DNA of 64,000 bases from an uncultured Gammaproteobacteria bacterium (GTDB lineage Bacteria > Pseudomonadota > Gammaproteobacteria > UBA9214). The notes beneath the pieces are model-generated. The model was not told where the DNA came from and ran no database searches. It worked only from the letters and a program-made list of their open reading frames with translations. Below are positions 4,244-54,238 of this stretch, piece by piece. Within the stretch, counting starts at the first letter, position 1. Every line of letters begins with the position of its first letter. Where the stretch lies: the NCBI GenBank assembly GCA_963712695.1, contig CAVQJD010000007.1, positions 3,221 through 67,220 on the forward strand, written 5' to 3'. A program made the translations under genes and the position numbers.

Positions 4244-4263
4244 GACAGGCTGGAGACATTACA

Positions 4264-6293: not shown

Positions 6294-9397
<3,104 letters not shown>

Positions 9398-9741: not shown

Positions 9742-10845
9742 ATGAGGCTGCTTATGAGATGCATCCGTATCATCGCAGGGGCCCGGGGCGCTATCGCCGC
9801 CGCTGTCCTGCTCTTCACCACCCTGTCACTGCTGGGCGCTCATACTGCCTGCGCGGCGCCGCAGTTTCCCAATGTCCCCCTGATAAACCAGGACGGCGAG
9901 ACGTTGTACTTCTACGATGACGTCATCAAGGGCAAGGTGGTGACCATCAATTTCATGTTCACCAGCTGCGGCGACTCCTGTCCGATGGAAACCGCCAAGC
10001 TGCGCAAGGTCCAGGAATTGCTCGGCGAACACGCCGGCAAGGACGTCCACATGTATTCCATCACCGTCGACCCCGACCGCGACACCCCGGCGGCACTCAA
10101 GGCGTACATGCAGAAATTCAAGGTCGGCCCCGGCTGGCAGTTCCTGACGGGAAAGAAAGCAGACATCGATCAGGTACGCAAACGCCTGGGCATGTACAGT
10201 GAAGCAGCGGATGAGCTCAGCGATCACGGCGTCAACTTCGTCCTGGGCAATGAGGCGACCGGAAAGTGGTTAAGACGTACGCCCTTTGATCTACCCGAGA
10301 CACTGGTATACGTGCTGCTGGGCCGCCTGCAACAGTACCGGCTGGTTTCAGATGCGGCTGCAGCGCTACCGAGCTACGCCCAGAGCCATGCCATGCCAGC
10401 TGCCCGCCCGGGCGAGGATCTGTTCAATACGCGTTGCACGGCCTGCCATACCATCGGCGAGGGCGACAGGCTGGGCCCGGATCTGCTGGGTGTCGTCAGT
10501 AAACGCGACCGTCAATGGCTGATTCGCTGGCTGCAGGAACCCGATGTGATGCTGAAGGAAAAAGATCCCCTGGCAACGGCACTCTACATCCAGTATGGCA
10601 AGGTACCGATGCCGAATGTGAAGCTGACTGACAAGAATGCGCTTGACCTGATCAAGTACATGCAGGCGGAAACCCGGCGTGTGAACGCACTAAACGGGGG
10701 TACGCCCGCGCAGACAGACAACCTGGAAAGCATCGTAGCGACAGAACCGGCGGTCCAGACGGGCGGGACAACACCGCCTCCGGGCACCGATACCCCGCAG
10801 GATCAGGCACGGGCAGATGCACCACCGATAAAACAGGTTCAGTAA
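9742..10845 (+). CDS. SCO1/SenC-family copper chaperone with a thioredoxin fold, fused to a C-terminal mono-haem cytochrome c domain.
   Basis: Signal peptide, then the Sco motif FTSCGDSCP, with DPDRDTP and GWQFLTG as in the Sco1 family. The C-terminal part carries a CTACH haem-binding site and c-type cytochrome-like spacing (GPDLLGV...MP). Confidence 0.7.
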   Translation: MRLLMRCIRIIAGARGAIAAAVLLFTTLSLLGAHTACAAPQFPNVPLINQDGETLYFYDDVIKGKVVTINFMFTSCGDSCPMETAKLRKVQELLGEHAGKDVHMYSITVDPDRDTPAALKAYMQKFKVGPGWQFLTGKKADIDQVRKRLGMYSEAADELSDHGVNFVLGNEATGKWLRRTPFDLPETLVYVLLGRLQQYRLVSDAAAALPSYAQSHAMPAARPGEDLFNTRCTACHTIGEGDRLGPDLLGVVSKRDRQWLIRWLQEPDVMLKEKDPLATALYIQYGKVPMPNVKLTDKNALDLIKYMQAETRRVNALNGGTPAQTDNLESIVATEPAVQTGGTTPPPGTDTPQDQARADAPPIKQVQ

Positions 10846-11755: not shown

Positions 11756-12274
11756 ATGAAATTTCACGCTGGGTTATTTATCTCAACAATAGTATTACTG
11801 TCTGCTTTCCCTGTGTGCTTCGCTCACGACAATCCGGGGGCAACAGAGGCTGCCATTGATAGCCCGGAAATTCAGAAACCGGCCGACTCCCCGGCTACAG
11901 GTAATAGCCCGGAGATTCAGAAACCGGCCGAAGCCGAAGCCGCTACTGACAATCCGATGACTCAGAAACCGGCCGAAGCCACGACTGCAGGCGATAGCCC
12001 CGAGATTCAGAAACCGGGCGAAGCCGAGGCAATGGAAGCGGCAATGCGGTACGTTAACCCGGATGGACAATTGACCATAAAAAATTCGGAGTTACTTGCA
12101 TGGGGCACGTTCAATGAAAAGCAAGTCTACTGGCCAATCAAATTTCGCGTGACCTATATATCAAAGGGATCTGATAAGCCAAGGCAGAATGAATATGCTG
12201 TGAAGATTGCCAAAGACAGCAACGGTCAATGGGTAGCCACACAGTATTGGGCATGGAGAACCGACTTCAAATAA
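11756..12274 (+). CDS. Secreted protein with four tandem SPEIQKP(A/G)EAEA-type repeats. The gene has lower GC than its neighbours.
   Basis: ORF with signal peptide MKFHAGLFISTIVLLSAFPVCFA. It has 4 copies of a (D/N)SPEIQKPA(E/D) repeat of about 16 aa. Codon usage and GC are visibly lower than in flanking genes. Confidence 0.5.
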   Translation: MKFHAGLFISTIVLLSAFPVCFAHDNPGATEAAIDSPEIQKPADSPATGNSPEIQKPAEAEAATDNPMTQKPAEATTAGDSPEIQKPGEAEAMEAAMRYVNPDGQLTIKNSELLAWGTFNEKQVYWPIKFRVTYISKGSDKPRQNEYAVKIAKDSNGQWVATQYWAWRTDFK

Positions 12275-12562
12275 ATACACGAGGCTGATCTTTGCAAGGC
12301 AACTCCTGAAAAATCTCCGCAGCCGCGGCCCCCCGCTAACAACAATCCATCACAGGATCTGGCCAATGTAGAGGAATTGCGGCTGTTGAACAGCGCAACC
12401 CCCGATTGGAAAGGGCTCCCGGTCACCGCCACCACTCTCGGTATCGACAACATCCAGACGGTACCGCTGCCGCCGTCCCTGGCGCTGTTCGGCTCGGGAC
12501 TGCTTGCGCTGTGGACACAACGGCGCAGACAAGCGCGGCGCAGACTTCCGCCGGGGGCATGA
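12275..12562 (+). pseudogene. Orphan 3' fragment that duplicates the PEP-CTERM tail of gene 10890..11654. It has no N-terminus.
   Basis: The frame is open from 12275 with no ATG. It encodes ANVEELRLLNSATPDWKGLPVTATTLGIDNIQTVPLPPSLALFGSGLLALWTQRRRQ. This is a near-copy of the last ~60 aa of the upstream PEP-CTERM protein (ANVTELRLLNSATPDWNGLQVVGTLGIDNIQAVPLPPAFALFASGLVVLVTRRRKQ). Confidence 0.45.
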
Positions 12563-13205: not shown

Positions 13206-16200
13206 ATGTCCACATCATACCCCCAGAATGACAGCACCCTGCAGCGGACACTTCGCACACCTGTGCCCTCTGGTCACCAGCTGCTGACACTTGGCCTGGC
13301 CTCAACCGCCCAGGCAGCGGTCACCTGTGAGCGTGACATTACGGCCAACGTCGTGGCACTCGACCAGCCGATTCTGTTCAATCGCCTGGGTGCCTCCAAC
13401 GTCAACGCGGCGATCTTCGCACTGGAACGCGACGTGGTGGATGCCAACGGTGTGCCGCTCAGCACTCGGCGGCGCTCGCGATCCCGGGACTGGTGCAGCT
13501 GCGTACCGACAAGCGCCCCCGCCCGCTGGTGTTGCGGGTACGCCGTGGCGACTGCCTGACGGTCAACCTGACCAATCTGCTGTCACCGGTGGCCAATCCG
13601 ATCAAGCCGCTGGTCGAAGGCGGTGACCCGCTGCCGAACAATGACCAGTTCAACGTGCCCATCGACGAACAGGTGTTCGACCGCCACGTGAGCTTCCACG
13701 TCTCCGGCATGCAGCTGGTGGATTCCATCGCTGACGACGGGTCCTATGTCGGCCAGAACCCGTCGAGCATCGCCGCCCAGGGCAACTCTGCATCCTACCG
13801 GCTCTACGCCGAGCGCGAAGGCGCCTTCCACGTGACCAGCCTCGGCTCGGTCGTGGGCTCCGACGGCAACGAGGGCAACACCTCCAATCTGCTGTTCGGC
13901 CAGGTGAGCGTCGAGCCGACCGGCGGCGAACATCTACCGCAGCCAGGTGACCGAAGAGGAGATGCGTCTGGTCTCCATGGACCTGGTCTCCACCTCGCCC
14001 ACCTGCGGCGCGCGCAACCTCAACGCGGCCAGCCAGCCGGTCATCGACTACGAGGCGCGCTACCCGACCGTGAACTGCGATGGCATCAACAACAGCGGGG
14101 CCGACCTGGGCGCGGCCGTGTGGATCGCCGAGGGCAAGGCGGGATTGCCCGTGCTCAATATGATCGACAACGACCAGATCGTGCAGTCCGAGATTCATGC
14201 CATGATCGTCGGCCCGAACGCCGACGGCAGCTTCCCGCCCAGCACCTATCCGCTGGAGAGCGTGGGCAAGCGCAACCCCAACCTGCCGAACCGCCTGACG
14301 CCGTTCCGTGAATTCGCCTCGGTGTTTCACGACGAGAGTGCCGCCGCCCAGGCGTTCCCGGGCTTCTTTGTCGACTGACCCGGTCTTCAACGTGGTGCTG
14401 GCCGGCGTCAAGGATGCCTTCATGATCAACTACGGCTCGGGCGGCATCGGCAGCGAAATCATCGCCAACCGCCTGCGGGTCGGACCCATGCACGACTGCC
14501 TCACCTGCGCCTTCGAGGAATTCTTCCTGACCTCCTTCACGGTGGGCGATCCGGCGCAGCTGGTTGATGTATCCGCCAATATCGGCCTCGAGGCCCTGCT
14601 GCCCGGACAGACCCCGGCACCAGGCACCACCGGCCCCAAGGCTACCTTCGTACCCTACCCCGAGGATCCGGCCAACATCCACCACAGCTACACGGGTGAC
14701 TTCGTCAAGATCCGCAACAGCCACACGGTAAGGAACAGCACGTCTTCCACCTGCACAACCACCAGTGGCTGTACAACCCCAACGACGACAACTCGAACTA
14801 CCTGGACGCGCAGGGCATCGGACCGGGTATCGGCTATACCTACGAGATCAACTTCGGCGGTTCGGGCAACCGCCCCAAGAGTTCCGGTGACGCCATCTTC
14901 CACTGCCACTTCTACCCGCATTTCGCCCAGGGCATGTGGTATCACTGGCGCAACCACGACGTGCTCGAAACCGGCACCCTGCTCGAGGCCAGCGGCAGCC
15001 CTGACAGCTTCCATGCCACGCCCTGGGCGCTGGGCAACGGCACCCCGATGCTGGCATCCGTCGCCGGGCTGACCGAGGCCGCACCCGGTGCGCGCGTACG
15101 CGCGCTGCCCGACGCCGAAGTGGTGGTCGGCGCCCCTATCCCGGCCATCGTACCGCTGCCCGGCAAGGCCATGCCGCCGCTGCCTGGCGAAGTACAGCTG
15201 GTGCCCAACCCGCTCACCACGACGGCGTCGATTTTCAATCCGACCCCGCCTGCCGCCGATCTCGACCCGCTCGCGCCGGGCATCCAGGTGCCGGTCGGCA
15301 GTCTGGCCAGCGTCGTGGATCGCGCCACCAACCCCGGTTATCCGTTCTGGATCGCCGGCATTGAAGACGTTGTCGGCCAGCGTCCACCCACCCCGCCGCT
15401 CGACATGGTCTCGGCTGCCCAGGTGGCGGCACTCAACGACGCGGCCTGCCAGGCCGACCCGAACTGCCTGTGGCAGAATCTGGATCCGGCCCAGGCCGAT
15501 GGCTGGGACGGCGGCCTGCCGCGCGCGGCCCTGCAGGGATTCGCGGCCGGTGGCGACACCGAACTCAATATCGTTTCGCGCCTCGATTTCACCAAAACGG
15601 TGGGTGAGGCGAAGGCGGTGTTCTATCCCCGAGGAAGGCACCGACCTCGAACAGCTCGCCATGCGCTTCCATGCCATTCGCAATCACCCCAGCTGCCTGC
15701 CGGATGGCACCTGTGATCCGACCATCGATCCCGGCAGCACTACGGCGGTGAACTTCGTGTCGAACGGCAATCTGCCCGCGGTCGGCGCGCCCTTCCACGA
15801 GCCGTGCATGGACGACCGGGGTGTGCGTCTCGAGACCGGTGTGCAGGGCAACTTCTTCGGCAGCACGCTGACGGCAATGAACGACCCGGCGGGCATGACC
15901 ACGGTCGGCTCGAGCGTCTTCACTGCCAACAACCCGCGCATCTACAAAGGCGCCAACATGCAGTACGACGTGGTGCTGAACAAGGCCGGCTACCACTACC
16001 CGCAGCAGCGCATCATTGCCCTGTGGGAGGACGTGGTGCCGGTGATCAGCAAGACCAAGCCCGACGAACCGCTGGTGATGCGCTTCAACACCTTCGACTG
16101 TGGCGTCTATCACCACACCAACCTGGTGCCTGAATACTACGAGCTCGACGATTATCAGGTGCGCACCCCGACCGACATCATCGGTCAGCACATCCACCTG

Positions 16201-19200
16201 CCCAAGTGGGATCTGACCACCGCCGACGGCGCCGCCAACGGCTGGAACTATGAGGACGGCACACTGTCGCCCGGTTCGGTGCGCGAGCGCATCCGCGCGC
16301 TGAACTGTTTCGCCACCGGCGACAGCGGCGACCCCGCCCACCCCTGCCCGCCCGGGATTCCGCGGCGGCATCGGCAGCCACGTTGCGGGCACCGGCTCCG
16401 GCGGATTGATCCCGCCCACGACCCTGACACCCGAGGCACACCCCTACTGGGCCGGTCAGGCGGCGGCACTGGGCGGCCCCTTCCCCGAGCTCTGGGACGG
16501 TGCCCGGGTCACCACCCAGCGCTGGTTCTTCGACCCGGTGGTCAACACCGAAGGGGTCGACCGGGGACTGGGCATCATCTTCACCCACGACCACTACGGC
16601 CCTTCGACCCACCAGCAGATCGGCCTGTATGCGACCGTGCTGGCCGAGCCGGCCGGTTCGCGCTGGGTGCACAACGAGACCGGCGTGCAGCTGGGCCGCG
16701 GCCCCGATGGTCTCAACCCCAGCGGCCGCATCGATGGCGGTCCGACCTCCTGGCAGGCGGTGATCCTGCCGCCGGGTGGCGGCTCGACCGTGAATCCGCC
16801 CGGCCAGCTGGAGCAGTTCCGGGAGTTCTACTTCGAGTACACCGACTTCCAGCACGCCTACGAGGCCGGCGTCTACGTGGGTGCCGACCAGCAGGGCGCA
16901 CCGATCGGCGGGCCGGTCGGCAACGATCCGGGGTTGACCGGACATCCTCAATACCGGCAATGCCGATTTCACCGGCCTGCCCGAAGATGCGTTCCGCTTC
17001 GCCATCAACCCGCCGAATCGCGAACAGGTCACACCCGTGTTCCCCGACCTGGTGCTGGAGGCGGCCGCAGGGCCTGTTGCCGGGTTGCCCCTTCAACCCG
17101 CTCACCGGCGAGGGCGGACGTCCCTGTCCGACCGCCATCGACGTACAGGACCCGGGTATGTTCTCGGTCAACTACCGCAACGAACCCGTTGCCCTGCGCG
17201 TCTTTGACCCGTTTGCGCTGGGCCCGGACGGCCAGCCGGGCGCCCAGAGTGATGCACGCGCCGGCGATCTCGCCCTCGCGTTCGAGACACGCAATGACCG
17301 TCGCCTGTTCGTGGAAGGCGCCAGTTTCGGCAGCATCGACGGCAACCCGATCCCCGGCTTTGTCCTGAACGAGGTACCGGTAGCGGGTGACCACATCAAC
17401 GGCACCGTCTTCCCGCCGCACATCAACGCCGGTGGCGTCAATGGCGGCGATCCCTTCACCCCGATGATGCGCGCCTTCGCCGGTGACCTGATCCGGGTGA
17501 AGATGCAGGCCGGCGGCGACGAGGAAGAACACGCCGCCACCATCCACGGCGTGAAATGGCTGTACGCCGGTTCCGGCCACGGCGAGGCCCGCAACTCGGG
17601 CTGGCGTGGCAGCCAGTCGGGCGGCATTTCCGAGCAGTTCACCCTCAAGGTACCGCTGGTACCGCTGAAGGGTAATGTCGGGCGCCGTCTCGACTACCTC
17701 TACACCATGGACGCCTCCACCGACGGTTGCTGGAGCGGCATGTGGGGCATCCTGCGTGCCTACGAAAACCGCACCCAGGCCACGGACCCGGCCCAGGGCG
17801 GCGGTCCGCTGGTCGAGTTGACCAACAATCCCCCGCCGCAGACGGGGCTGGTGCAGATCACCAACGAGGCCGATTTCGACGGCGCCTGTCCGCTGTTCAT
17901 GCCCGATGGCGTGACCCCGACCACGGTCCGCGCGTATGACATTACCGTGGTACTGGCCAACGACGTGCTGCCCGTCAACCCCGACGTGATCATCACGGAT
18001 GTCGACCCGGCGGGTCACGTAGGTGCGGCACCGGATCCTCTCGGCGGCACGCTGGTCTACAACCCGCGCACCGACCAGATCGGTGGTGGCGTACTGGTAG
18101 AACCCGGCCATCCGCCGGTGCCGTTGCCGATCCACAACGGCCCGATTCACGATCCGACCGCGATCCTGTATGTCCATACCTCGGATGTCGTCACGGATCG
18201 TACTCGGCAATCCCATCGGCCTCAAGCCGAACACCCCGGTCGAACCGCTGGTGCTGCGTGCCGCCGCGGGCGACTGCATCAGGGTCACGCTGCGCAACGA
18301 ACTGCCGGTGCTGATGCCGGAGCTGCCGACCTATACCAGCCTGCTCGGCGCCAACAAGCGCGACCGGCTGGGCGTCGAGGGTTCGACCACCTTCCAGACC
18401 AACCTGCTGGCTGCCGTCCAATCGCGTCGGACTGCACCCGCAGATGCTGGCCTACGATGTGTCGCGCGCCGACGGCACGGTGGTGGGCGAGAACCACACC
18501 CTGGCGCAGGTCATCGGTCCCAACAGCGCCCCGGCCACGTTCGAGTGGTACGCCGGCGATCTCGGCTTTACCCGCGACGGCGCGGGTCAGTGGACGCTGA
18601 CCGCGACGCCGGTGGAGTTCGGGGTGTCGAACCTGGCACCGGCGGACAAGATCAAGCACGGCATGAAGTCGGCGGTCGGCCAGCTGATCGTCGAGCCGCT
18701 GGGTTCCAGCTGGATCGAGGACGGCGTCAATGAGAATCCGAGCGGTGCCCGTGGCCGACCCGCTGCGCTTTGCCTATGCACCCGGTGCGACCCGGCTCGA
18801 GGCCTCGGTCATCAAGGACGGCGCCCGCATCTTCCGCGACCTGTCGGTGGTCCTGACCAAGCAGCAGACCCAGTACTATGCGGACAGCGAGCCGGTCGAA
18901 CACCTGAACGGTGAAGGTGCAGGCATCCCCGAGGATCCGCAGGAAGCCACGGGCATGGCGATCAACTACCAGATCGATCCGCTCTGGTTCCGGCTCGGCA
19001 TCCTGCCGAATTCGCCCTTCGGCAACGACATCACACCGTCGAGCTTCGGCAATGCGGTGCCACCGAATGCGGACGGGACCCAGTTCGACATCTACAGCAA
19101 CAACCGGCCGCATCCGCCCGGCAGCCCGCTGGTCGGTCCCATCGGTGAGCCGTCCACGCCGGTGTTCCTGGCACGGCCCGGTGAACCCCTGCGCGTGCGT

Positions 19201-19848
19201 CTCGGCGTACCGCACGGCACCAACCGCGGGTCCACCTTCAGCCTGCACGGCCACACCTGGCAGCGCGACCCCTATATCTGCCCGAACGATGCGCGCAACG
19301 GCCTGATTGGCGCCTGTCTGCCGACCAGTGTCGGTTCGCAGGCCATCGGACACAATCCGCAGGGCTTCTACCAGGGTGCGCAGGAGAGCATCTGGTCCAC
19401 CGCGCACTACGATTTCGTGCTGGCGAGCGCGGGCGGTGCGGGTGAGATCCTGGGTGATTACCTGTTCCGCGACACCGCTTCCTTCGGTAATGCCTCCGGG
19501 CTGTGGGGTATCCTCCGGGTCGAGAACCGACCGGATGCCGATGGCGACGGTATCTTCGATGATGTGGACAACTGCATCAACGTGGCCAATGGTCCGCTGA
19601 TCCCGGATGCCGGCGGCTTCAGCCAGCGGGATACCAACGGGGATGGGTTCGGTAACGTCTGCGATGCGGATTTCAATGGCGACGGCGTGGTCGATGCCTT
19701 CGATATTCCCGCGTTCAGAGGGGCGTTTGGCTCGGCACTGGCACCGGATCAGGATCTGAATGGTGACGGTATCGTCGATGCATTCGATATCCCGCTGTTC
19801 AGGGCATCCTTTGGACAACCACCCGGCCTGTCGTGCTGTGGAATTTAG
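13206..19848 (+). pseudogene. Giant (~2200 aa) multi-domain multicopper oxidase of the MnxG/MofA/MoxA type with a C-terminal TSP3 plus double dockerin-like module. The frame is broken about 10-12 times.
   Basis: ATG 13206 follows a GAGGAGG RBS, and the signal region is LLTLGLASTAQAAV. A continuous homologous reading runs through ORFs 12993, 13493, 13947, 14308, 14934, 15088, 16406, 15088 again, 18170, 18444 and 18730. Copper-site motifs: HVFHLHNHQW, IFHCHFYPHFAQGMW (HCHxxxHxxxGM), FTHDHYGPSTH, HIHLPKW and FSLHGHTWQRDP. Paired GMWGILRAYE and GLWGILRVE motifs also occur. The C-terminus is DNCINVANGP...RDTNGDGFGNVCDADFNGDGVVDAFDIPAFRGAFG...DLNGDGIVDAFDIPLFRASFGQPPGLSCCGI. Confidence 0.6.
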
Positions 19849-19915: not shown

Positions 19916-20104
19916 CGGGGAAAGGAACCCGGGTGACCGGTCAGACCACCCGCGACCCGATGACACTACGCTGCAGGGGGAAAGGCGGTCATCGCGCAAT
20001 GCCCAGGGGGGCAACTGAAATTGCGAACACGGGGGTGGCGAGGTCCCCGCCCAATGAAAAAGGAAACCAGCGCAAGACAGGTTGAAAAACCGGGAGACAA
20101 GACA

Positions 20105-21466
20105 ATGAAGCTATTCAGTATTGGCCTGCTCGCCAGTGCCCTGCTCGGGCTGGGCCAGGCGGCCCACGCTACCTGTCCGGTGGACGGCGCAACCCCCTTC
20201 ACCGCCGGGCCCGTGGATCCCGTCAACGGTTTTGCCACCTATCTCCAGGATTCCGAGGGTCTGGCACTGGAGCTGTGCCTGGACGGGTCTGGCACCCCTA
20301 CCGGCACGCCACCTGATCTTTGCTTTTTCGACCCACCCATTGCGGGCAATGCCTTCTCCGAATTAATCGGATTCGGTCCGGAAGGTTTCTGGTGGCTGGC
20401 ACAGCCCGCGTTTGGCGGCCCCAACTCCCCTCCCCAGCCACTGGGTTTACCCGTAGCGGTACTGGTGCTGGGCGCGGAAGCCGCTTGGGTGGCAGAGATT
20501 CCGGGTCCCGGTGAACAGTTTCCCTTTACCCGGCTGCGCATCCGCCTCGACGTCCTGTCAAACGGATACTACCGGGTGACCCATCCCTACGGCCAGGAGG
20601 TCTACGAACTCTTTGCGGCAACCGGTCTGAACGAAAGTTTCGACATCCAGTTCCAGCCGAACGCGGTGAACCAGGGCCGGGTCGGCCCCTGGCTGAGCTG
20701 GGATCCGGCCGTTGCCCCTGTGGCGCCGGCCGGCTACATCGGCGACGGGGCCACCCCGCACCCGGTGGTGGGCAGTCCGTGCGGGACCAATTACTTCAAA
20801 ATCGAGGCGTTTACCAACGCAGCCCTGACAATCCCGCTGCCCATTGAAGTCGGTGATCCGGGCGGCGATGGAAACAATGTGGTGCAGGTCAATGACTTCA
20901 CTGTGGTCGGCAAGTTGTTTACGGGGGGCCCACTGCCGACACCGCTGCTCGTCGACCAGACTACCTACAGCCGCGCCAACGACGGCCGGGTGAGTGTGTT
21001 TGCCACCGCCCCGACCACGGCGAGCCTCAGCTTCAGCGGGGATCTCAACATCCCGGCCGGCCCACAGGCCATGGCAGGCGACGGCAGCGGCAAGTACTTC
21101 GGCAGTGTGGCGCTTGATCCGGATGCCAGTGCCCTGCCGGCCAGCGTCCAGGTCACCGCCGACAACAGCGCCGCCAATCCGGATAACGATCCAAACACCG
21201 TCAACAGCGACCTGGTCGACGTGGTGACCATCACGCGCGCCGAGTATGACAAGGGCACGGGAACGCTGACCGTCGAGGCCAGCTCGAGTGACCGCTCACC
21301 GACCAATCCGCCCACCCTGACTGCGTCAGGTGGTCTGGGCGCGCTGAGTAATGGCGCCCTCACAGCAACCAGCCTGACCGTCGCACCGGCCAGTGTTACC
21401 GTGACATCGGGCGCGGGCGGGTCTGATACCCAGCCTGTGACCATTATCAACCCCGTCCTCCCGTAA
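20105..21466 (+). CDS. Secreted family-A paralog, short form without a dockerin.
   Basis: ATG 20105 follows a GGGAGA RBS, with signal peptide MKLFSIGLLASALLGLGQAAHA. It carries the conserved family-A core (TCPVDGATPFTAGPVDP, FPFTRLRIRLDV, GSPCGTNYFKIEAF, LVDVVTITRAEYD, TLTVEASSSD). Confidence 0.65.
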   Translation: MKLFSIGLLASALLGLGQAAHATCPVDGATPFTAGPVDPVNGFATYLQDSEGLALELCLDGSGTPTGTPPDLCFFDPPIAGNAFSELIGFGPEGFWWLAQPAFGGPNSPPQPLGLPVAVLVLGAEAAWVAEIPGPGEQFPFTRLRIRLDVLSNGYYRVTHPYGQEVYELFAATGLNESFDIQFQPNAVNQGRVGPWLSWDPAVAPVAPAGYIGDGATPHPVVGSPCGTNYFKIEAFTNAALTIPLPIEVGDPGGDGNNVVQVNDFTVVGKLFTGGPLPTPLLVDQTTYSRANDGRVSVFATAPTTASLSFSGDLNIPAGPQAMAGDGSGKYFGSVALDPDASALPASVQVTADNSAANPDNDPNTVNSDLVDVVTITRAEYDKGTGTLTVEASSSDRSPTNPPTLTASGGLGALSNGALTATSLTVAPASVTVTSGAGGSDTQPVTIINPVLP

Positions 21467-21499
21467 CGCGGTGCAGACGAGCAACTGGAGGCAACTGAC

Positions 21500-23482
21500 A
21501 TGACACACACAATTAGGAATCGTCTGGTCGCGGCAGCCATTGGACTCTGCCTGGGTCCCGCGGCCCATGCAGTCTGTCCGGTGGACGGTGCGACACCCTT
21601 CACCGCGGGTCCCGTCAACCCCAATAACGGTTTCGCCGAATACGTACAGGATTCCACTGGGCTGGCGCTGGAACTGTGTTCCGTGAGCACCATCGACCCC
21701 GTCACGGGGCTGCCCGGTAACCCGCCCAACTGTTTCTTCGACCCGCCACAGGCCGGCAATCCGTTCTCGGAGCAGATCGGCTTCGGGGCCGAGGGCTTCT
21801 GGTGGCTGGCGCAGGCCGACGACACTGCATTTCCAGCGGGACTCTCTGCGGTGCTGGTCATGGGCGCAGAGGCGGCTTTCCTGACCGAAACCCCCGCAGA
21901 TGGCGACCAGTTTCCTTTCACCCGGCTGCGCATCCGCCTCGACGTCCCGGTGCCAGGCTTTTACCAGGTGACCCACCCGTACGGTCAACAGGTATTCGAG
22001 GTCGTCGCCGTGGGCCCCGGACAGGAAGTGCGCGAGAGCTTTGACATCGAATTCGCGCCGGACGCCGTGAACCAGGGGCGGGTCGGACCCTGGCTGAGCT
22101 GGGATCCGGCCGTGCCACCGTTGGCGCCGACCGGCTTCATCGGTGACGGGCTAACCTCCCATGCCATCGTCGGCAGCCCCTGCCCAGACCCAGATAACAC
22201 AAATGAATTCAGCAACTTCCTGCGCATCGAGGCCTTTTCGGACGCAGCACTCCAAAATCCGCTGCCCATCCCAAACAACGGCGGCAGCAACACCGTGCAG
22301 ACCGATCTGTTCACGGTACAGGGCCAGCTCTTCGATGGGGTCCTGGCAACCCCCATGGTCGCGGACCGGACCTCCTACTCACGCGATGGCGCCACGACTG
22401 CACAGGTGGATGTGTTCACCAGCGGCGCCACCACGGCGAGCGTGACCTTCAGCGGCAATCCCAATGTACCGGCCGGGGCCCTGCCTCTGTCCGGCGACGG
22501 CAGCGGTTTGTTCTACAGCAGCGAGTTGCTGGCTCCGAACGGCAACACGGTGCCGGCGACGGTAACGGTGGCTGCGACGGATATAACTGCTCCGACTGAC
22601 CCGACCACCCTGATCCGGCCGCTGACCGATGTGGTGATCATCGCCCGCGCCGAGTACGACCTGGCGACCCAGACCCTCAGCGTCGAGGCAACATCCAGTG
22701 ACACCCTGGTACCGCAGACCCTGACCGTGGGCGAACTGGGTCTGCCAGTACCCGTCTCGGAGGTGCTGACAGTACCGCCGGGCCGGGTGACGGTGACTTC
22801 CACGGCGGGCGGCAGCGACACCGAAGCGGTGCTGGTCGTGGACAGCACGGACAGCGACGGCGACGGGATACCGGATACGCATGACAACTGTCCGATCAAT
22901 GCCAACACCGACCAGGCGGACCTCGACCTTGACGGCATCGGCGATGCCTGCGACCCGGACATCGACGGTGACACCGTGGACAACGGTCTGGACAACTGCC
23001 CGGTCAATGCCAACGCCGACCAGGCGGACCTCGACCTTGACGGCATCGGCGATGCCTGCGACCCGGACATCGACGGTGACACCATAGACAACGGTCTGGA
23101 CAACTGCCCGGTCAATGCCAACTCCGACCAGGCGGACCTCGACCTTGACGGCATCGGCGATGCCTGCGACCCGGACATCGACGGTGACAACGTGGACAAC
23201 GCTGCCGACAACTGCACACTAGTTGCCAACATCGACCAGCGTGACAGCAACGGGGACAATTTCGGTAATGTCTGTGACGCGGACTTCAACAACGACTGCG
23301 TGGTCGATGCATTCGATATTCCGGCGTTCAGAACGGCCTTTGGCTCGGCTGGACCGGATGAGGACCTGAATGGTGACAACATCGTGGATGCATTCGATAT
23401 CCCGCTGTTCAGAAATGCATTTGGACAGCCTCCGGGCCCGTCCTTTGTCGGCGCCTGCGTGGGGGTGCCGCCGCTGCCCTAG
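21500..23482 (+). CDS. Secreted family-A paralog, long form with four TSP3 repeats plus a double dockerin-like module.
   Basis: A GGAGG RBS and a signal peptide precede the family-A core. The C-terminal 200 aa are three near-identical 36-aa TSP3 repeats, then DNCTLVANIDQRDSNGDNFGNVCDADFNNDCVVDAFDIPAFRTAFG...DLNGDNIVDAFDIPLFRNAFGQPPGPSF. Confidence 0.7.
   Translation: MTHTIRNRLVAAAIGLCLGPAAHAVCPVDGATPFTAGPVNPNNGFAEYVQDSTGLALELCSVSTIDPVTGLPGNPPNCFFDPPQAGNPFSEQIGFGAEGFWWLAQADDTAFPAGLSAVLVMGAEAAFLTETPADGDQFPFTRLRIRLDVPVPGFYQVTHPYGQQVFEVVAVGPGQEVRESFDIEFAPDAVNQGRVGPWLSWDPAVPPLAPTGFIGDGLTSHAIVGSPCPDPDNTNEFSNFLRIEAFSDAALQNPLPIPNNGGSNTVQTDLFTVQGQLFDGVLATPMVADRTSYSRDGATTAQVDVFTSGATTASVTFSGNPNVPAGALPLSGDGSGLFYSSELLAPNGNTVPATVTVAATDITAPTDPTTLIRPLTDVVIIARAEYDLATQTLSVEATSSDTLVPQTLTVGELGLPVPVSEVLTVPPGRVTVTSTAGGSDTEAVLVVDSTDSDGDGIPDTHDNCPINANTDQADLDLDGIGDACDPDIDGDTVDNGLDNCPVNANADQADLDLDGIGDACDPDIDGDTIDNGLDNCPVNANSDQADLDLDGIGDACDPDIDGDNVDNAADNCTLVANIDQRDSNGDNFGNVCDADFNNDCVVDAFDIPAFRTAFGSAGPDEDLNGDNIVDAFDIPLFRNAFGQPPGPSFVGACVGVPPLP
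22883..23206. repeat. Tandem DNA repeat of 3 x 108 bp, ~95% identical, that encodes the TSP3 repeats of gene 21500..23482.
   Basis: The unit is gacaactgcccggtcaatgccaac...gacctcgaccttgacggcatcggcgatgcctgcgacccggacatcgacggtgac. Copies start at 22883, 22991 and 23099. It is in-frame and coding (DNCPVNANxDQADLDLDGIGDACDPDIDGD). Confidence 0.8.
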
Positions 23483-23794: not shown

Positions 23795-25774
23795 GTGTAC
23801 GCCAGCTCTACAAACTGCCGCCTATGGTGGCCTTTCCTCCTGCTGTTACCCTTATTCCTGGCACTGATCACCGTCGGCCGCACCGCGGAGCCAGAGCCGG
23901 TCGGAGCCCGACTACGGGCCGCCTGGTCAGACACGGCATCGTGGTCGATTTCGAGGCACTGCCGCTCGCAGGCAACGATCAGGGCCTCATGGAAGGGCAA
24001 CTGGCCGAGATCCGCTTCCGACTCACCGAGGAAGCGACCGGCGCACCGGTCCGGGGTATTACGCCCGGCGCCTGGATGGACATGGGTGAAGTCATCCAGG
24101 GCCAGTCGGGGGCCGAGCAGAAAACCTGCAAGGAAAAGATCGCGCTCTATCTCAAGGGTGTGGTCGGCATCCGCCCCATGATCGACCTCAACAGCTACTA
24201 TGTACTGATCCTCAACAAGGAACCGAGTATCTCCGTCGTTGATCCGCTGGTATCGATGGTGGGCAAGACCAGCACCCTGGCGAATATCCGTCTCGAGGCC
24301 GCGGGGGCCGACTGGGCCAGCAGCGCGGACGAAAAGCGTGTCTTCGTGAGCATGCCCAAGGCCGGCAAGGTGGCACTGCTGGATACCAGCAAGTTCAAGG
24401 TGACCGACAACATCCCGGCCGGCAGTGCACCGACCCGGGTGGCCCTGCAACCCGATGGACGCTATCTCTGGGTCGGTAACAACGCGCCAACCGCGGATGC
24501 CAGCGGGGTCACCGTTATCGACACTGGCACGCTGGAATCCCTGGCCACCTTACCCACCGGGGCCGGACATCACGAGATCGCCTTCACCGCCGACAGCCGT
24601 TATGCCTTCGTGAGCAATCGCGATGCCGGCACGGTCAGTGTCATCGACGTCCAGTCACGCACCGTGCTGAAGAACATCGAGACCGGCCCGCTGCCCATTT
24701 CGCTCGCCTATTCAGCGCTGTCCCGGGCGCTGTACGTCGCCGACGGCAAGGACGGCCACATCAGCGTGATCGACACCGAGCAGTTCAAGGTGCAAAAACG
24801 GATCGAGGCCAGTCCCGGGCTGGGACCGTTGCGTTTCGCACCGGACGGCCGCTATGCCGTGGTGGTCAACCCCAGCCAGGAAACGGTCTACGTAATCGAC
24901 GCGGCGGCCAACGAAATCGTGCACCGCATCGCCGTGACCGGGCAGCCCTACCAGGTCGTGTTCAGCCGTGCCTTTGCCTACGTGCGCCCGCTTGCCAGCC
25001 AGAGCATCTCCATGATCGACCTGAAGCAGTCTCGGGGCGGGCAAGCAGCCGATCGTGAAAAGCTTCGAGGCAGGCAGCGTAGCACCCAGCCTGGCCGGTG
25101 ACCTGTCGCTGGCCGACTCGCTGGCCGCGACCAGCAGCGAGGCAGCCATGTTCATCGTCAACCCGGGAGACAACACCACCTATGTCTACATGGAAGGCAT
25201 GAACGCACCGTCCAGCAACTACTCGGTGCGCGGTGCCAGCGCGCGCGGCGTGATGGTCGTTGATCGCAGTCTGCACGAAATCGAGCCGGGGTTGTTTTCC
25301 GCCAAGGTGAAGCTTCCCGCCCCCGGCCGCTACGATGTGGCGTTCCTGCTGGATACGCCACAGATCCTGCATTGTTTTTCGGCAGAAGCACAGCCCGATC
25401 CCCGGATTGATCATGCCACCACGCCACTGACCATCGAATACCTGCTGCAAGACCGGCGCATGCATCTCGACACCCCGGCGCCACTACGCTTCCGGCTCGT
25501 CGATCCGCATACCGGCCAGCCCATGACCGGGTTGAAGGACGTGGGCGTGCGCTACTTCCGGGTACCCGGCACTGACCGCAAGGAGATGCGTGCCAGTGAG
25601 GAAGGTGACGGCGTGTACCGGGCCGATCTGGCACTGTCGCATCCGGGTGCCTATTACGTGCACGTGGGTGTGCCCTCCGTGGGCATCGCCTACCAGGATC
25701 TGCCCTACTTCACCCTGGTCGCCGTCCAGACCGCGGCCGGTGCACAACGCACGCCACAGGAGACATCGCCATGA
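23795..25774 (+). CDS. Secreted YVTN-type beta-propeller repeat protein with two apparent frameshifts.
   Basis: ORF 23795 has the signal peptide WPFLLLLPLFLALITVG. ORF 23824-25101 has repeated about 40-aa YVTN-like blades (RYLWVGNN..., RYAFVSNRDAGTVSVID, ALYVADGKDGHISVID, RYAVVVNPSQETVYVID). The tail continues in ORF 25055-25774. Confidence 0.5.
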
Positions 25775-26739
25775 ACCTGCGCCTGACTGGCGCCCTCTGC
25801 GCCCTCGTCCTGGGATTCGGCCCGTTGCCGGGTGTACTGGCCGATGCCTTCGGCCTGGCGGCCCGGGTCAACGGCATGGAGATCTCCAGCGAAAAGCTCG
25901 AGAAGAGCTTTGAGGAATACCTGCGCGAGAACAACGTGAACGTGGGCGCCATTCGCTATCCCGATCGATACAAGGCCATGAAGCGGGAGACGCTCGACTT
26001 GCTTATCGACCAGCTACTGCTGTGGCAGGCGGCTCAGGACAGCGACATGGTAGCGACACCTGCAGAAGTCAGCGCCGCGTTCGATGACATGCGTGCCCAG
26101 TTCAAGTCGGCGGAGAACTTTCGCGACCGGCTCGCTGCCGAAGGTTACAGTGAGGACAGTTACCGGGAACACCTCAAGCAGCTGGTCTCGGCCAGCAAGT
26201 ACCTGGAGAGCCTGAGCGGCGACATCGGAGTGAGCGATACGGAAGTACACGACTTCTATACCCGGAACCCGGATAAATTCCAGGTGCCCGAAGTCGTCCG
26301 GGCGCGCCACATCCTGATCAAGCTGGATGCCTCGCACTCCGATGAGGAGCAGCGCGGCAGGCGCAAGCAGATCGAGGACATCCTGGCACAGGCACGCGCG
26401 GGTGCCGACTTCGCCCGGCTCGCCAGCGAGCATTCAGAAGATACCAGCGCCGCCCAGGGCGGTGACCTCGGCTACTTTCCGCGCGGGAGAATGGTAAAAC
26501 CGTTCGAGGACGCCGCGTTCGGTTTGCAGCCGGGCGAGCTGTCCGGGGTAGTGGAAACCCCGTTCGGCCTGCACATCATCAAGCTGGAGGAGCGTCACGC
26601 GCCAACGATACTGCCCGAAGCCGATGCCCGCGAACGGATTACCGGGTATCTCACGGCGCTGAAGCGTGAACAGGCCGTATCCACCGGCATGGAAACGCTG
26701 CGTTCCAGCGCCAAAATTGAAATACTGGTACCGTTATGA
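25771..26739 (+). CDS. Parvulin-type peptidyl-prolyl cis-trans isomerase, a SurA/PpiD/PrsA-like periplasmic chaperone.
   Basis: Signal peptide and a chaperone-like N-domain. The parvulin domain contains ARHILIK, GGDLGYFPRGRMVKPFEDAAF and GVVETPFGLHIIK. The start overlaps the upstream stop by 4 nt. Confidence 0.7.
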   Translation: MNLRLTGALCALVLGFGPLPGVLADAFGLAARVNGMEISSEKLEKSFEEYLRENNVNVGAIRYPDRYKAMKRETLDLLIDQLLLWQAAQDSDMVATPAEVSAAFDDMRAQFKSAENFRDRLAAEGYSEDSYREHLKQLVSASKYLESLSGDIGVSDTEVHDFYTRNPDKFQVPEVVRARHILIKLDASHSDEEQRGRRKQIEDILAQARAGADFARLASEHSEDTSAAQGGDLGYFPRGRMVKPFEDAAFGLQPGELSGVVETPFGLHIIKLEERHAPTILPEADARERITGYLTALKREQAVSTGMETLRSSAKIEILVPL

Positions 26740-28097
26740 AACACCCTGCCGCACGGAGCGTAACCGGATTGCCGAAGCCCTGCTTGCACCCTGCGCACCT
26801 GCCGGTCGCGCTGCTGATGCTGGTCCTGCTGGCGCCAGCGGCCGTGCAGGCGGCTGAGGAGCACCACCATCATCTGCACCCCGAGCCGGTTTCCGCCGCT
26901 GACCCGCACGCGCACCACCGGGCCATGCTCGAGCAGGCACAGCCGGGGCCTGCCACCGCCACCGATGTCACACTGCACAATGCGACGCTGCTGACCCAGA
27001 ACGGCACGCAGGTGCGGTTCGCCAGCGAGGTCATCGCTGACCGCATCGTGGTAATGGACTTCGTCTACACCACCTGTACCACCGTGTGCCCGGTGCTGTC
27101 CGCGGTCTTCGGCCAGGTGCAGGAACGTCTGGGCGACCGGCTCGGACAGGAGGTGTCGCTGGTATCAGTCAGTGTTGACCCCGTTCGCGACACACCGCCA
27201 CGACTCAAGGCCTACGCCGACCGGCACCGCGCACAGGATGGCTGGATCTGGCTCACCGGGGATAAATCGCAGGTGGACCAGGTGCTGACCGGGCTTGGTG
27301 CCTACGCGCCGCGTTTCGAGGACCATCCGGCCATGGTCCTGGTGGGCGATGGACGTTCCGGGACCTGGATCCGTTTCTTCGGCTTCCCGGGCACGGACCA
27401 GATCCTGGCTGCGGTGGATGAACTCTCGGCGGCCCGGCAGGCGTGCCGCCCAACACCTGCAGGAGTAATGCACCATGCGCACGTTTTTCAGCTTGTTTCT
27501 CACTTTCGCCCTGGCCTGGCTAGCGCCTGCCGTGTCCGCAGCACCACGCAGACGACGGGCGGCGCGGCGGCGACACCCGCTGCGCCAACCCAGGCCGACG
27601 CTGACGAGGCCTCGCGTCAGTACTTCACGGACCTGAAGCTGGTCACCCAGGACGGCAAGGATGTGCGCTTCTTCAGCGATGTCCTGCAAGACAGGATCGT
27701 GCTCATCAATTTCATCTTCACCCACTGTGAGGGTGCCTGCCCGCTGATGACCCGCAAGCTCAAATCGAGCCGTGACCTGCTCGACGCACCATTGCGTGCC
27801 AGGGTGCATTTCGTCTCCATCAGCATCGACCCGGAACGTGACACGCCGGCGGCGATGAAGGCATTTGCCACCCAACACGAACTCGCCGACGACAAGAACT
27901 GGCTGTTTCTCACCGGTGATCCGCAAAACGTGAACCAGATCGTCAGGAAGCTCGGCCAGTACACGCCGGACGTCGAGGAGCACTCGACACTGGTGCTGGC
28001 CGGCAATGTCAGGGATCACTACTGGATGAAGATCTCGCCCATGGTGCCGGCGGAGGGTATCGCGGACAAGCTGCGCCTGCTGGCACAGGAGCAGTGA
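26736..28097 (+). CDS. Tandem double SCO1/SenC copper-chaperone protein with a His-rich N-terminal segment.
   Basis: The His-rich stretch is EEHHHHLHPEPVSAADPHAHH. Two Sco-type thioredoxin-fold domains carry CTTVCP...DPVRDTP...GWIWLTG and HCEGACP...DPERDTP...NWLFLTG. It overlaps the upstream gene end, so it sits in the same operon. Confidence 0.7.
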   Translation: MKHPAARSVTGLPKPCLHPAHLPVALLMLVLLAPAAVQAAEEHHHHLHPEPVSAADPHAHHRAMLEQAQPGPATATDVTLHNATLLTQNGTQVRFASEVIADRIVVMDFVYTTCTTVCPVLSAVFGQVQERLGDRLGQEVSLVSVSVDPVRDTPPRLKAYADRHRAQDGWIWLTGDKSQVDQVLTGLGAYAPRFEDHPAMVLVGDGRSGTWIRFFGFPGTDQILAAVDELSAARQACRPTPAGVMHHAHVFQLVSHFRPGLASACRVRSTTQTTGGAAATPAAPTQADADEASRQYFTDLKLVTQDGKDVRFFSDVLQDRIVLINFIFTHCEGACPLMTRKLKSSRDLLDAPLRARVHFVSISIDPERDTPAAMKAFATQHELADDKNWLFLTGDPQNVNQIVRKLGQYTPDVEEHSTLVLAGNVRDHYWMKISPMVPAEGIADKLRLLAQEQ

Positions 28098-29738
28098 GGC
28101 GCATCATCACGGCCAGGCGCCGGACGCGTCCCTGGTCAACGGCTGCGCTGGCCCTGTTGCTCGCCGGCACTGTCGCGGCCACCCCACTCTCGCCCCAGGA
28201 ACAGCGCGGCAAGCAGATCTATATCCACGGCACCAGCGCCGCCGGCACGGCTATCACCGCGCACGTGGGCACGCAGGCGGTTGCATTGCCCGCGAGCGCG
28301 ATACCCTGCGCCAGCTGCCATGGCCCCGACGGACGCGGTCGCCCCGAAGGCGGCGTGAACCCGACCGACATCACCTGGCAGAACCTCACCAAACACTATG
28401 GCCACCGGCACGACTTCGGCCGCCAGCACCCGGCTTTCGACACGGCTTCACTGGCGGCCGCAATCACCCGGGGGATTGATCCGGCCGGCAACCGGCTGGA
28501 TGCGGCCATGCCACTCTACAGCATGGAACCGGACGACCTGGCTGCCCTGATCGCCTATCTGAAGTGCATCGAGACCGACAGCGACCGCGGCCTCTCTGCA
28601 ACAAACATCCGACTGGCCACGCAGCTGCCCCTGTCGGGTCGTCTGGCTGGACTGGGCGAGGCCATGCGTGCGGTCATGCTGGCCTATTTCGCGGAGCTCA
28701 ACGCGGCCGGTGGCATCCACGGCCGCCACCTCGAACTCGTGGTCATCCCGTTCGGCGACTCGCCGCGCACGGCGCTGACCAATCTCGAGCAGGGCCTGGC
28801 CGAACAGGAAATCTTCGCCCTGGTCGGCAGCTACAGCGTAGGCCTGGAAGACGAGACGGCACGGCTGATGGAACAGCAAGCAGCTACCCCTGGTCGGTCC
28901 CTTCACCCTGCAGCCGCAGTCCGGCGAGGGCCTGGACCGCCACACCTTCTATCTGTATCCCGGGCAGGAACAACGGGTGCGGGTACTGGTCGATGTCGCG
29001 GGCGACAGGAAGTCAGCGCGGGCGCCCCGCCTCGCCGTTGCAGGCCCCGACACGCCCACCCTCGCCAGGCTTGGCCAGGTGATCACAGAGCAGGCACGCC
29101 GTCACGGCTGGGACACGGTACAGACTTTCGCTTATCCGCCCGGCCAGCTGGTCCCGGCGCAGCTGGCCGCGGCACTGCAGGATGCAGGGCGTACCGCGCT
29201 GTTTTTCTTCGGCACCAGCGACGAGCTGAATGCCTTGCTCGTCACCCTGGGTGAATCAGACCAGCCACCGGCGGTTTATCTGCTCTCAAGCCTGGCGACG
29301 CCTGCCCTGCTCACCGCCCCGGCGGTGTTCGACCAGCGGATCTTTATTGCCTACCCGACGCTGCCGCGTGACGTAACAGCGCGCGGCCAGCAGGACTACA
29401 ACGCACTCAGGCAGAAATACGATCTGCCCGAGGCACACGTCTCGGGACAGATCGCCGCCTACGCCGCCGCCAGAACGCTCGTGGAAGGCCTGAAACGCGC
29501 CGGCAGGGATCTGAGCAGGCAAGGGCTGGTCAGTGCACTGGAAGGCCTGTACCGTTTCGACACCGGACTCACCCCGCCGCTGACCTACAATGCGAATCGT
29601 CGCATCGGGGCACTGGGTGCCCATGTGGTCGCAGTGCAGCTCGCAGCCGGGGGCTACGCTCCCGGTGGGCGCGTGGCAACCGCTCGATTAGCCGTGCAGG
29701 TGCAGCGCACAACTCCGCTGGTGAGATATACGGGCTAA
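28094..29738 (+). CDS. Cytochrome c domain fused to a LivK-like type-I periplasmic binding protein (branched-chain amino acid binding-protein fold). One apparent frameshift near 28900-29000.
   Basis: The N-terminus has a signal peptide and CASCH haem-binding site with c-type context. PBP-like sequence then follows (LSGRLAGLGEAMRAVMLAYFAELNAAGGIHGRHLELVVIPFGD...) and continues in ORF 28977-29738 (LSSLATPALLTAPAVFDQRIFIAYPTLPRD...). Confidence 0.55.
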
Positions 29739-36698: not shown

Positions 36699-36728
36699 AC
36701 CAGGGGTAGTTTCTTACCCGCCAATACT

Positions 36729-36756
36729 GGGCCGCCTTCGGGCGGCCCTTTTCTTG
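36729..36756 (+). terminator. Rho-independent terminator after the MCO gene.
   Basis: GGGCCGCC-TTCG-GGCGGCCC followed by TTTTCTTG. Confidence 0.55.
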
Positions 36757-36912
36757 CCAGAGGACGGCTGCGGCTGTTATGTTTTTAAACAGATCAGCAC
36801 ATGTCTGTCCCACGGGCAGTAGAATGGTTGATCATCTCCGCTCCACCGGCAATCCCCGCGGTATCTGCGGTTCAGTACAAACAGAAACACACGTTCGGGA
36901 GAAGACTGCACT

Positions 36913-37677: not shown

Positions 37678-37762
37678 CGCAGCGGATAGTAGCCTGGCCC
37701 GCACAGGCGTCCTGCATTTTCATACTCATGACCTTAGACCATAACGACAACGGAGAATCCGG

Positions 37763-40103: not shown

Positions 40104-40108
40104 TCAGC

Positions 40109-44183: not shown

Positions 44184-44373
44184 GCATAATTCCCGTGTAT
44201 TTTGATTATTAAAGTAATTTTATAACCCAATATGACCTCGATTTCTATCATTTATTAACCCGTGATTCCAAATTACACAGCGGTGCATTATGGTAGCAAT
44301 CGGGATGACCCCGGTCCCGTAGCGGGTACCCGTGTTTTCGAACCATAACGACAGAATCAGGAGAAAATCCGAC

Positions 44374-51100: not shown

Positions 51101-54238
<3,138 letters not shown>

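Follow-up and report, generated by a model that had tools for sequence, protein, structure and literature searches.

Genetic evidence for Mn(II) oxidation by an MnxG enzyme is confined to that of Pseudomonas putida GB-1 (PMC11930936). In this organism, deletion of mnxG slows Mn(II) removal about ten-fold, and a mnxG mcoA double knockout forms no oxide at all (PMC11930936). The GB-1 mnxG operon also encodes a "lactonase family" beta-propeller, SCO family proteins, a binding protein and SurA, a gene set matched by the locus described here (PMC8218464). Bacillus MnxG, which is about 25% identical to the P. putida enzyme (PpMnxG), works with two small subunits, MnxE and MnxF (bioRxiv 10.1101/2022.11.10.515945). 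MofA of Leptothrix discophora SS-1 is likewise a large secreted multicopper oxidase implicated in Mn oxidation, and its operon, mofABC, contains genes for a Mip/FKBP protein (mofB) and a cytochrome c protein (mofC) (PMC8218464). In this study, we analyzed a 64,000-nucleotide stretch (referred to as "the window") from an uncultured gammaproteobacterium of lineage UBA9214 (contig CAVQJD010000007.1), in which a giant multicopper oxidase gene, called mnxG below, is deposited with a heavily broken reading frame. Our results suggest that positions 13206-19848 probably encode one functional, secreted oxidase of the MnxG family, about 2,211 amino acids (aa) long, and that the breaks stem from consensus errors in a noisy assembly.

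A sequence-only reading of the window had proposed a single gene of ~2200 aa with roughly 12 frame breaks. At any point of mnxG, exactly one frame has a third-position GC content of 0.8-0.95, and this frame changes 11 times between 13206 and 19848. A dynamic-programming path, in which stops were forbidden and frame changes penalised, gave 12 segments joined by 11 frame switches and a stitched protein of 2,209 aa. By third-position GC and the stop-free path, the region is a single homologous reading that opens with the ATG at 13206 and closes with a stop codon at 19846-19848, and homologues that are intact at 1,992 and 2,225 aa are collinear with every segment. The four motifs that the earlier reading had quoted were all located on the plus strand, spread over three frames (Table 1). 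When the 14 indels described below are undone, the result is one open reading frame (ORF) of 2,211 aa and not several small genes; the number of breaks proposed agrees with these 14 indels and the 11 net frame switches.

Two sibling assemblies from the same lineage were used for comparison, L081 (ena:ERZ25039499:contig_2405, 1.05 Mb) and L082 (ena:ERZ25039603:contig_35019, 83 kb). The "contig_N" names are presumably those of a long-read assembler. Across mnxG, the window is ~89-91% identical to them at the nucleotide level; the gene is called in three pieces in each sibling, and the break positions differ between the assemblies. In a three-way nucleotide alignment of the window, L081 and L082, we counted the indels within the mnxG coding sequence (CDS) whose length is not a multiple of three. 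Fourteen frame-breaking indels are private to the window, comprising 11 single extra bases, two single missing bases and one 2-nt deletion. L081 has two private break sites (15965, and 18093-18111 with a net change of -7), and L082 has five private indels (16035, 16284, 16641, 16711 and 16777). No frame break in this alignment is common to any two of the three assemblies, and L081 and L082 concur against the window at each of its 14 sites. The corrected gene has no in-frame stop in 2,211 codons, and its dN/dS against L081 is 0.138 over 2,068 codons, with values below 0.3 in each of 12 segments. Similar errors occur outside mnxG. The operon genes downstream of it carry six indels private to the window in 6.0 kb (four private to L082, one to L081), and these private indels split both the propeller/YtkA gene and the cytochrome c/binding-protein gene and join the two genes for SCO proteins in a single ORF. 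The same type of error also breaks the other oxidases and the CusA-like pump at 40109-43269, which is deposited in four or more pieces. Because all 14 breaks are private, the siblings agree at every site and unrelated neighbours are similarly affected, the breaks are best regarded as consensus errors, with the gene apparently intact in the organism. Resequencing is not needed to settle the integrity of the gene, since comparison with L081 and L082 is enough to identify the frame breaks as errors.

It might be argued that the frameshifts exist in the organism and that the oxidase is a pseudogene decaying in this lineage. The deposited sequence does hold 14 frame-breaking indels in mnxG, and the sibling copies are interrupted too, at the two sites and by the five indels given above. 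In addition, the density of private indels in mnxG (2.1 per kb, 14 in 6.6 kb) is about twice that in the downstream operon genes (~1.0 per kb); this weighs against an intact gene, and we tentatively attribute it to uneven coverage. However, decay would not be expected to leave a gene in which no break is common to two assemblies, dN/dS is 0.14, stops are absent from the corrected frame, third-position GC remains at 0.8-0.95 throughout that frame and the copper ligands are all intact. Single-base insertions of a similar kind also strike unrelated neighbours, including pumps and chaperones, and 11 of the 14 events are one-base insertions lying mostly outside homopolymers, a pattern typical of consensus error. 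A real pseudogene is thus very improbable, and we take mnxG to be an intact gene. Two narrower explanations for the shifts were also rejected: homopolymer-length errors, since only 2 of the 11 inserted bases in mnxG adjoin an identical base; and programmed frameshifting, since the shifts are private to one assembly. Apart from the frame-breaking events, two in-frame length differences were seen in mnxG: 27 nt (9 aa) at 18009 are present in both siblings and missing from the window, and 18 nt at 17095 are missing from L081.

The oxidase matched the NCBIfam profile for MnxG, NF041487, from end to end (profile positions 1-1894 of 1894), scoring 2,255 bits as the stitched protein and 2,282 bits after correction. 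Its identity to MnxG of P. putida II-2 is 49% over 2,130 aa (tblastn), or 53% over aligned columns. The protein had previously been described as MnxG/MofA-like, with an alignment against MnxG suggested as a check; this alignment places it with the P. putida type of MnxG, to which it is homologous over the full length. A match to Bacillus MnxG (PDB 9bxa_A; E = 2.6e-61, 210 bits) comprises six aligned stretches, the best of which covers the HxxHxH...HCH region. A total of 2,486 homologues were obtained at E <= 1e-20; the top 120 have 51-63% identity, and each is a single protein of ~1,700-2,400 aa. Several of the best homologues carry the JGI label "manganese oxidase". A further 524 relatives are found among species-representative genomes. 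Searching Pfam with the whole protein gave only sub-threshold matches (TSP_3, 23.6 bits; Cu-oxidase_3, 17.3 bits), and the MnxG-type family is essentially invisible to Pfam. The equivalog cutoff of NF041487 is 3,100 bits, and among the sequences scored against this profile only the Pseudomonas one passed it: P. putida II-2 MnxG scored 3,836 bits, as compared with 2,428 and 2,453 bits for P0001 and P0020, two intact homologues from outside Pseudomonas. Judged by these scores, the window protein appears to be a typical non-Pseudomonas member of the full-length MnxG family and not a certified equivalog. Functional identity with PpMnxG is not certified, because the score is below the equivalog cutoff.

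The conservation of the copper ligands was determined from an alignment of 46 family members. The complete set, namely the T1 site and four HxH pairs, is present in the window protein and is 96-98% conserved across the 46 sequences. The T1 copper ligands (H510, C565, H570 and M575) come from the two motifs within 14739..14939, as do two HxH pairs of the trinuclear cluster, whose other two pairs lie further downstream (Table 1). Hence, three of the four sequences put forward as cupredoxin copper-site signatures do carry T1 or trinuclear ligands. This is not the case for the fourth, FSLHGHTWQ, which has no canonical HxH pair; its H2012 is 96% conserved, lies outside the four canonical pairs and may belong to an extra metal site.

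The main uncertainty is the substrate, because identity to the genetically tested enzyme is only ~50% and the region is rich in copper-homeostasis genes. By analogy with P. putida, the window MnxG is a plausible Mn(II) oxidase, and the earlier proposal of a candidate manganese oxidase stands on grounds of orthology, with the qualification that the score is below the equivalog cutoff. Alternatively, it might be an intact MnxG-family oxidase that acts on Cu(I), Fe(II) or an organic substrate within a copper/metal homeostasis island. Several observations weigh against manganese in this respect: the sub-cutoff NF041487 score; the identity of only 49-53% to the tested Pseudomonas enzyme; and the abundance of copper-handling genes in the window, which include several SCO1 genes, two Cus-like efflux systems of the RND type and, besides mnxG, two multicopper oxidases. 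Multicopper oxidases are also promiscuous, and CotA and CueO oxidise Mn poorly (bioRxiv 10.1101/2022.11.10.515945). A copper- or iron-related role is therefore conceivable. However, neither the full-length collinearity with P. putida MnxG nor the matching accessory operon would be expected for an oxidase of that kind. Furthermore, the sources named for the homologues include Caldimonas, Ideonella sp. A 288 and Burkholderiales JOSHI_001, which we take to be Mn-oxidising organisms. On balance, a substrate other than Mn is rather unlikely.

The C-terminal end of the protein is formed by a module of ~106 aa, in which a calcium-binding repeat of the thrombospondin type 3 (TSP3) is followed by two dockerin-like loop-helix repeats of the form D-x-N-G-D-G-x-V-D-A-F-D-I-P-x-F-R. 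When the tail was searched alone, TSP_3 (PF02412) scored 38.8 bits and passed its cutoff of 25. The matches of the tail in PDB sequences are weak and are to dockerins only. In an AlphaFold model, the predicted local distance difference test score (pLDDT) is 81-93 across the two loop-helix units. Comparison of this model with the PDB by Foldseek gave dockerins from cohesin complexes as the 19 best matches, with thrombospondin at ranks 20-21. The best match, 2y3n_B, had a probability of 1.00, a root-mean-square deviation of 1.4 Å over 53 columns, 34% identity and a TM-score of 0.76 (target-normalised). The tail noticed as a dockerin in the sequence-only reading is therefore real, and its predicted structure groups with dockerins. 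All three assemblies have the tail, and dN/dS values of 0.05 and 0.20 point to purifying selection on it. Variation between the siblings falls on the helix faces, the calcium loops being conserved, a combination that fits a recognition surface. Such a tail is absent from each of the 120 nearest intact homologues, most of which end a few residues after a GxWG(I/L)(L/M)RV motif, and a full-text literature search returned no natural dockerin-bearing Mn oxidase or multicopper oxidase. Both results agree with the earlier statement that a dockerin-tagged giant multicopper oxidase has not been described.

Most likely, the tail would act as a calcium-dependent tether to a partner at the cell surface or in the matrix, as the predicted fold suggests. 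A competing explanation, less probable in our estimation but one to be taken seriously, takes the tail for a generic TSP3/EF-hand-like module with calcium-binding capacity and not for a cohesin-binding dockerin; its role would be to stabilise the protein or to bind exopolysaccharide, mineral or calcium in the matrix. Three points weigh against the dockerin assignment: Dockerin_1 (PF00404) scored only 18.9 bits on the MnxG tail (E = 0.0017), below its cutoff of 22.9, leaving TSP_3 as the sole Pfam family above threshold; the AlphaFold model was built from a shallow alignment of 35 sequences, so that the dockerin fold is a prediction; and a search for a cohesin-like partner, confined to the ORFs of the window and to the sibling loci, found none. 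A generic module would also be consistent with the profile of this module matching 51,459 representative proteins (1,786 at E <= 1e-30) of highly varied architecture, and the function of non-cellulosomal dockerins is described as unknown in the passage of PMC5244752 that cites Peer et al. 2009. No multicopper oxidase is among the best 150 of these 51,459 carriers, a list that is dominated by proteins with many TSP3 repeats and is uninformative on rarer fusions. However, a generic module would not readily explain why dockerins solved in cohesin complexes take all of the first 19 places among the structural matches, why dockerins are the only sequence matches in the PDB or why loops and helix faces differ in conservation between the siblings. 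Moreover, there are module relatives with precomputed PF00404 matches, and Dockerin_1 passes its cutoff on the corresponding module of the oxidase at 33700 (23.7-25.0 bits). The tether is, for these reasons, the reading that we prefer. Other C-terminal additions were seen among the homologues: P0002, P0004 and P0014 have a Cys-rich tail of ~55 aa ending in ...CCSG(S/N)C(G/A)G..RRRGRTCR, and the tail of P0104 is FG-GAP/VCBS-like. The MnxG family is thus variable in its C-terminal accessory modules.

The same module, ~90-110 aa long and made up of one TSP3 repeat and a pair of dockerin-like repeats, with PGPS(C/G) at its end, is shared by six secreted proteins encoded within one 37-kb stretch, including all three multicopper oxidases of the window and a di-haem peroxidase (Table 1). 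MCO_A, ~1,030 aa long, carries the motifs HWFHDH, HPVHIHFE and EHCHNTTHEDKAM; with ~14 frame switches in 3.1 kb, its gene has the densest errors in the window. MCO_B is ~970 aa long here, and 974+ aa and intact in L081. Both of these smaller oxidases gave only weak PhsA/CueO-like NCBIfam matches. The remaining two carriers belong to paralogous gene pairs on the plus strand (2975-6063 and 20021-23482), each pair encoding a protein with a ~440-aa domain and a paralogue extended by TSP3 and dockerin-like sequences. This domain family has 361 homologues, which are often fused to cadherin-like, FN3, TSP3 or dockerin domains and occur in Methylobacter and Sphaerotilus; a model of the domain (pLDDT 87.5) is a string of immunoglobulin-like (Ig-like) beta-sandwiches resembling adhesins and S-layer proteins. 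It is tempting to imagine that the carriers are assembled into a calcium-dependent, metal-oxidising multi-enzyme complex at the surface, a non-cellulosomal counterpart of the cellulosome. The whole of the evidence for such a complex is the shared module, and we consider it unlikely. The 20021-21466 product was examined as a possible cohesin partner and rejected, as it has a tandem Ig-like fold with no cohesin among its top structural matches. The 663-aa product of a divergent neighbouring gene and the orf10890 product, also checked as cohesin partners, had no Pfam or PDB match.

Table 1. Positions of mnxG, its indels and motifs, and other features of the window
Feature	Position	Strand	Remarks
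mnxG-type giant multicopper oxidase CDS (MnxG)	13206..19848	+	2,211 aa after undoing 14 private indels; deposited as 12 frame segments; module C-terminal
Sec-type signal peptide (MSTSYPQNDSTLQRTFAHLCPLVTSLLTLGLASTAQA / AVTCERD)	13206..13316	+	read from sequence
HxxHxH (H510, H513, H515) and HCHxxxHxxxxM (H564, C565, H566, H570, M575)	14739..14939	+	98% conserved in 46 members
HVFHLHNHQW	14739-14768	+	frame 3
HCHFYPHFAQGMW	14901-14939	+	frame 3
Third HxH pair, H993-I-H995	16189..16197	+	98% conserved
FTHDHYGPSTH, with fourth HxH pair H1125-D-H1127 plus H1133	16580..16612	+	frame 2; 98% conserved
FSLHGHTWQ	19237-19263	+	frame 1
C-terminal module: TSP3-type calcium-binding repeat, then two dockerin-like loop-helix repeats	19528..19845	+	~106 aa; ends ...PPGLSCCGI
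Dockerin-like loop-helix repeats of the MnxG tail	19669-19716, 19753-19800	+	
One extra base each, mnxG	13250, 13465, 13476, 13925, 14376, 15626, 16938, 17069, 18200, 18413, 18742		window-private
One missing base each, mnxG	13280, 14723		window-private
Two missing bases, mnxG	16362		window-private
Di-haem cytochrome c peroxidase/MauG-like protein	44-2680		module C-terminal
orf4264 (Ig-like array)	4264-6063		module C-terminal
Oxidase MCO_A	6294-9394	+	module C-terminal
SCO1/SenC-cytochrome c fusion, upstream of mnxG	9742..10845	+	position conserved in L081
Two lineage-specific genes between mnxG and the propeller gene	20021..23482	+	in L082; absent from L081 and 80 other loci
orf21500 (Ig-like array)	21500-23482	+	module C-terminal
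Beta-propeller (cytochrome D1/YncE-like) and YtkA-like protein	23824..25774	+	658 aa in L081; split by private indels 23906, 25023
PpiC/SurA-type peptidyl-prolyl isomerase	25771..26739	+	conserved mnxG-operon member
Two SCO1/SenC copper-chaperone genes	26736..28097	+	243 and 205 aa in siblings; 453-aa ORF here via private indels 27444, 27546
Cytochrome c and periplasmic-binding-protein fusion	28094..29738	+	524 aa in L081; split by indel 28882
Oxidase MCO_B	33700-36698	+	module N-terminal, after signal peptide
FKBP (Mip-like) genes	36913-37677, 37763-38833, 44332-45066	+	17-25 kb downstream of mnxG

The neighbourhood of mnxG is also that of a Pseudomonas-type locus. Of 80 related loci, 57-69, that of P. 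putida among them, have mnxG followed by genes for the propeller/YtkA protein, two SCO1/SenC proteins, the cytochrome c-binding-protein fusion and PpiC/SurA, and the whole of this partner set is present in the window at 23824-29738. The propeller/YtkA gene directly follows mnxG in 68-69 of the 80 loci. Here the two lineage-specific genes stand between them, the first (20021-21466) encoding a 481-aa array of Ig-like domains, and the second (21500-23482) a 660-aa paralogue with four TSP3 repeats and a dockerin-like tail as on MnxG.

The locus had been likened to mofABC on account of its FKBP isomerases and c-type cytochrome domains, which would make the protein a MofA-like oxidase in an operon of the mofABC type (oxidase, FKBP isomerase and cytochrome c). 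The window does contain FKBP-type (Mip-like) genes and cytochrome c domains, in keeping with the products of mofB and mofC mentioned above. The FKBP genes, however, are not in the mnxG cluster. The genes that follow mnxG encode the two Ig-like/TSP3 proteins, the propeller/YtkA protein, PpiC, SCO proteins and the cytochrome c-binding-protein fusion, with no FKBP among them and no stand-alone cytochrome c, whereas the order in mofABC is oxidase, FKBP, cytochrome c. The FKBP genes stand instead directly after a different oxidase, MCO_B, and around a CusBA-like pump: after MCO_B (33700-45066, plus strand) come a pair of FKBP/Mip-like genes, a CusB-like gene that includes heavy-metal-binding domains, the frame-broken CusA-like RND pump gene and the third FKBP gene. 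The oxidase-then-FKBP order of mofABC thus belongs, in the window, to the ~970-aa oxidase. As MnxG is also the only curated family matched over the length of the protein, a mofABC-type operon is improbable in the extreme; mnxG is accompanied by the mnxG-operon set.

In Pseudomonas, mnxG is under the control of MnxR, and a sigma-54 promoter would be expected. No sigma-54 consensus was found upstream of mnxG, and the window's three matches with one mismatch are no more than chance would give; one of these, CGGCACTGAAATTGCA at 33605-33620, is just upstream of MCO_B. A scan of the gap upstream of mnxG for sigma-70 promoters and terminators likewise gave results at chance level, and Rfam and tRNA scans found no RNA genes in the window.

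Several other features of the window were noted. Upstream of mnxG, orf10890 (10890-11654, 254 aa), which is conserved in L081, ends in ...VPLPPAFALFASGLVVLVTRRRKQ, which resembles a sorting signal of the PEP-CTERM/VPLPA-CTERM kind. The last ~175 nt of orf10890 are duplicated with 79-83% identity at 12359-12532, at the end of a second small gene. This second gene (up to 12535, plus strand), which L081 lacks, includes four tandem repeats of 45 nt (11831-12025). On the minus strand at 52107-56360 there is a second RND-type efflux system (AcrB/CusA-like, HlyD/CusB-like and an outer-membrane factor), fragmented into partial ORFs. The segment 32001-34000, between the 663-aa divergent gene and the third oxidase, has a G+C content of 0.49, as compared with 0.60-0.66 in the flanking regions; in places it is 73% identical to L081, and no RNA gene was found in it.

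Taken together, these features lead us to propose the following mechanism. MnxG would be exported by the Sec pathway, and its copper loading and periplasmic folding would most likely be assisted by the SCO1/SenC proteins, the YtkA-like/beta-propeller protein, the cytochrome c/binding-protein fusion and SurA/PpiC. By orthology with GB-1 MnxG, the T1 site would take single electrons from Mn(II) and Mn(III) and pass them to the trinuclear cluster, where O2 would be reduced to water, and Mn(III/IV) oxide would be deposited outside the cell. The C-terminal TSP3 and dockerin-fold module, presumably added in this lineage, might then provide a calcium-dependent tether to a surface or matrix partner, and this tether might be shared with the two smaller oxidases, the di-haem peroxidase and the two Ig-like-array proteins.

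A large, named MnxG family with its usual operon is already known, and the tail module itself is common. What is new is the presence of a TSP3 and dockerin-fold tail on an MnxG-type oxidase, common to five neighbouring secreted proteins. Little is understood of how bacterial Mn oxidases are anchored to the cell surface and of how they are organised alongside other redox enzymes, and an MnxG with a dockerin-fold tail that it shares with two oxidases and a peroxidase offers a handle for finding the anchoring partner. Our results also extend the Pseudomonas-type mnxG operon to an uncultured gammaproteobacterial lineage. As gene callers fragmented mnxG in all three public assemblies, the potential of this lineage for Mn oxidation is invisible to annotation-based surveys; a comparison of sibling assemblies can tell such consensus errors from real pseudogenes.

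Among the described systems, the window protein compares most fully with MnxG of P. putida GB-1 (PputGB1_2447), with which it shares full-length collinear homology, the copper-ligand motifs and the accessory genes. The cleavage region of P. putida MnxG (...ATSEA/AVQCQRN) aligns with the AVTCERD region of the window protein. Nevertheless, the latter is ~250 aa longer than Pseudomonas MnxG, partly because of its C-terminal TSP3 and dockerin-fold module. The operons differ in two further respects: the Pseudomonas mnxG operon lacks the two genes inserted after mnxG in the window; and PpiC precedes the SCO genes in the window, whereas the PpiC/SurA gene is not ahead of them in GB-1. MnxG of Bacillus sp. 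PL-12 has 1,227 aa in place of the 2,211 aa found here, and the partners in the window are those of the Pseudomonas-type operon and not the MnxE/MnxF of the Bacillus Mnx complex. The small ORF near mnxG at 10890-11654 had no PDB match and no MnxE/F was identified, although no explicit search for MnxE/MnxF was made. The tail, for its part, resembles known dockerins (PF00404; 2y3n_B, 2ozn_B) in its two tandem calcium loops of the form D-x-N-x-D-G-x-V-D-x-x-D and in the helix that comes after each. Unlike known dockerins, it belongs to a redox metalloenzyme of a Gram-negative bacterium, comes after a thrombospondin type-3 repeat and has the conserved motif PGPS(C/G) at its end.

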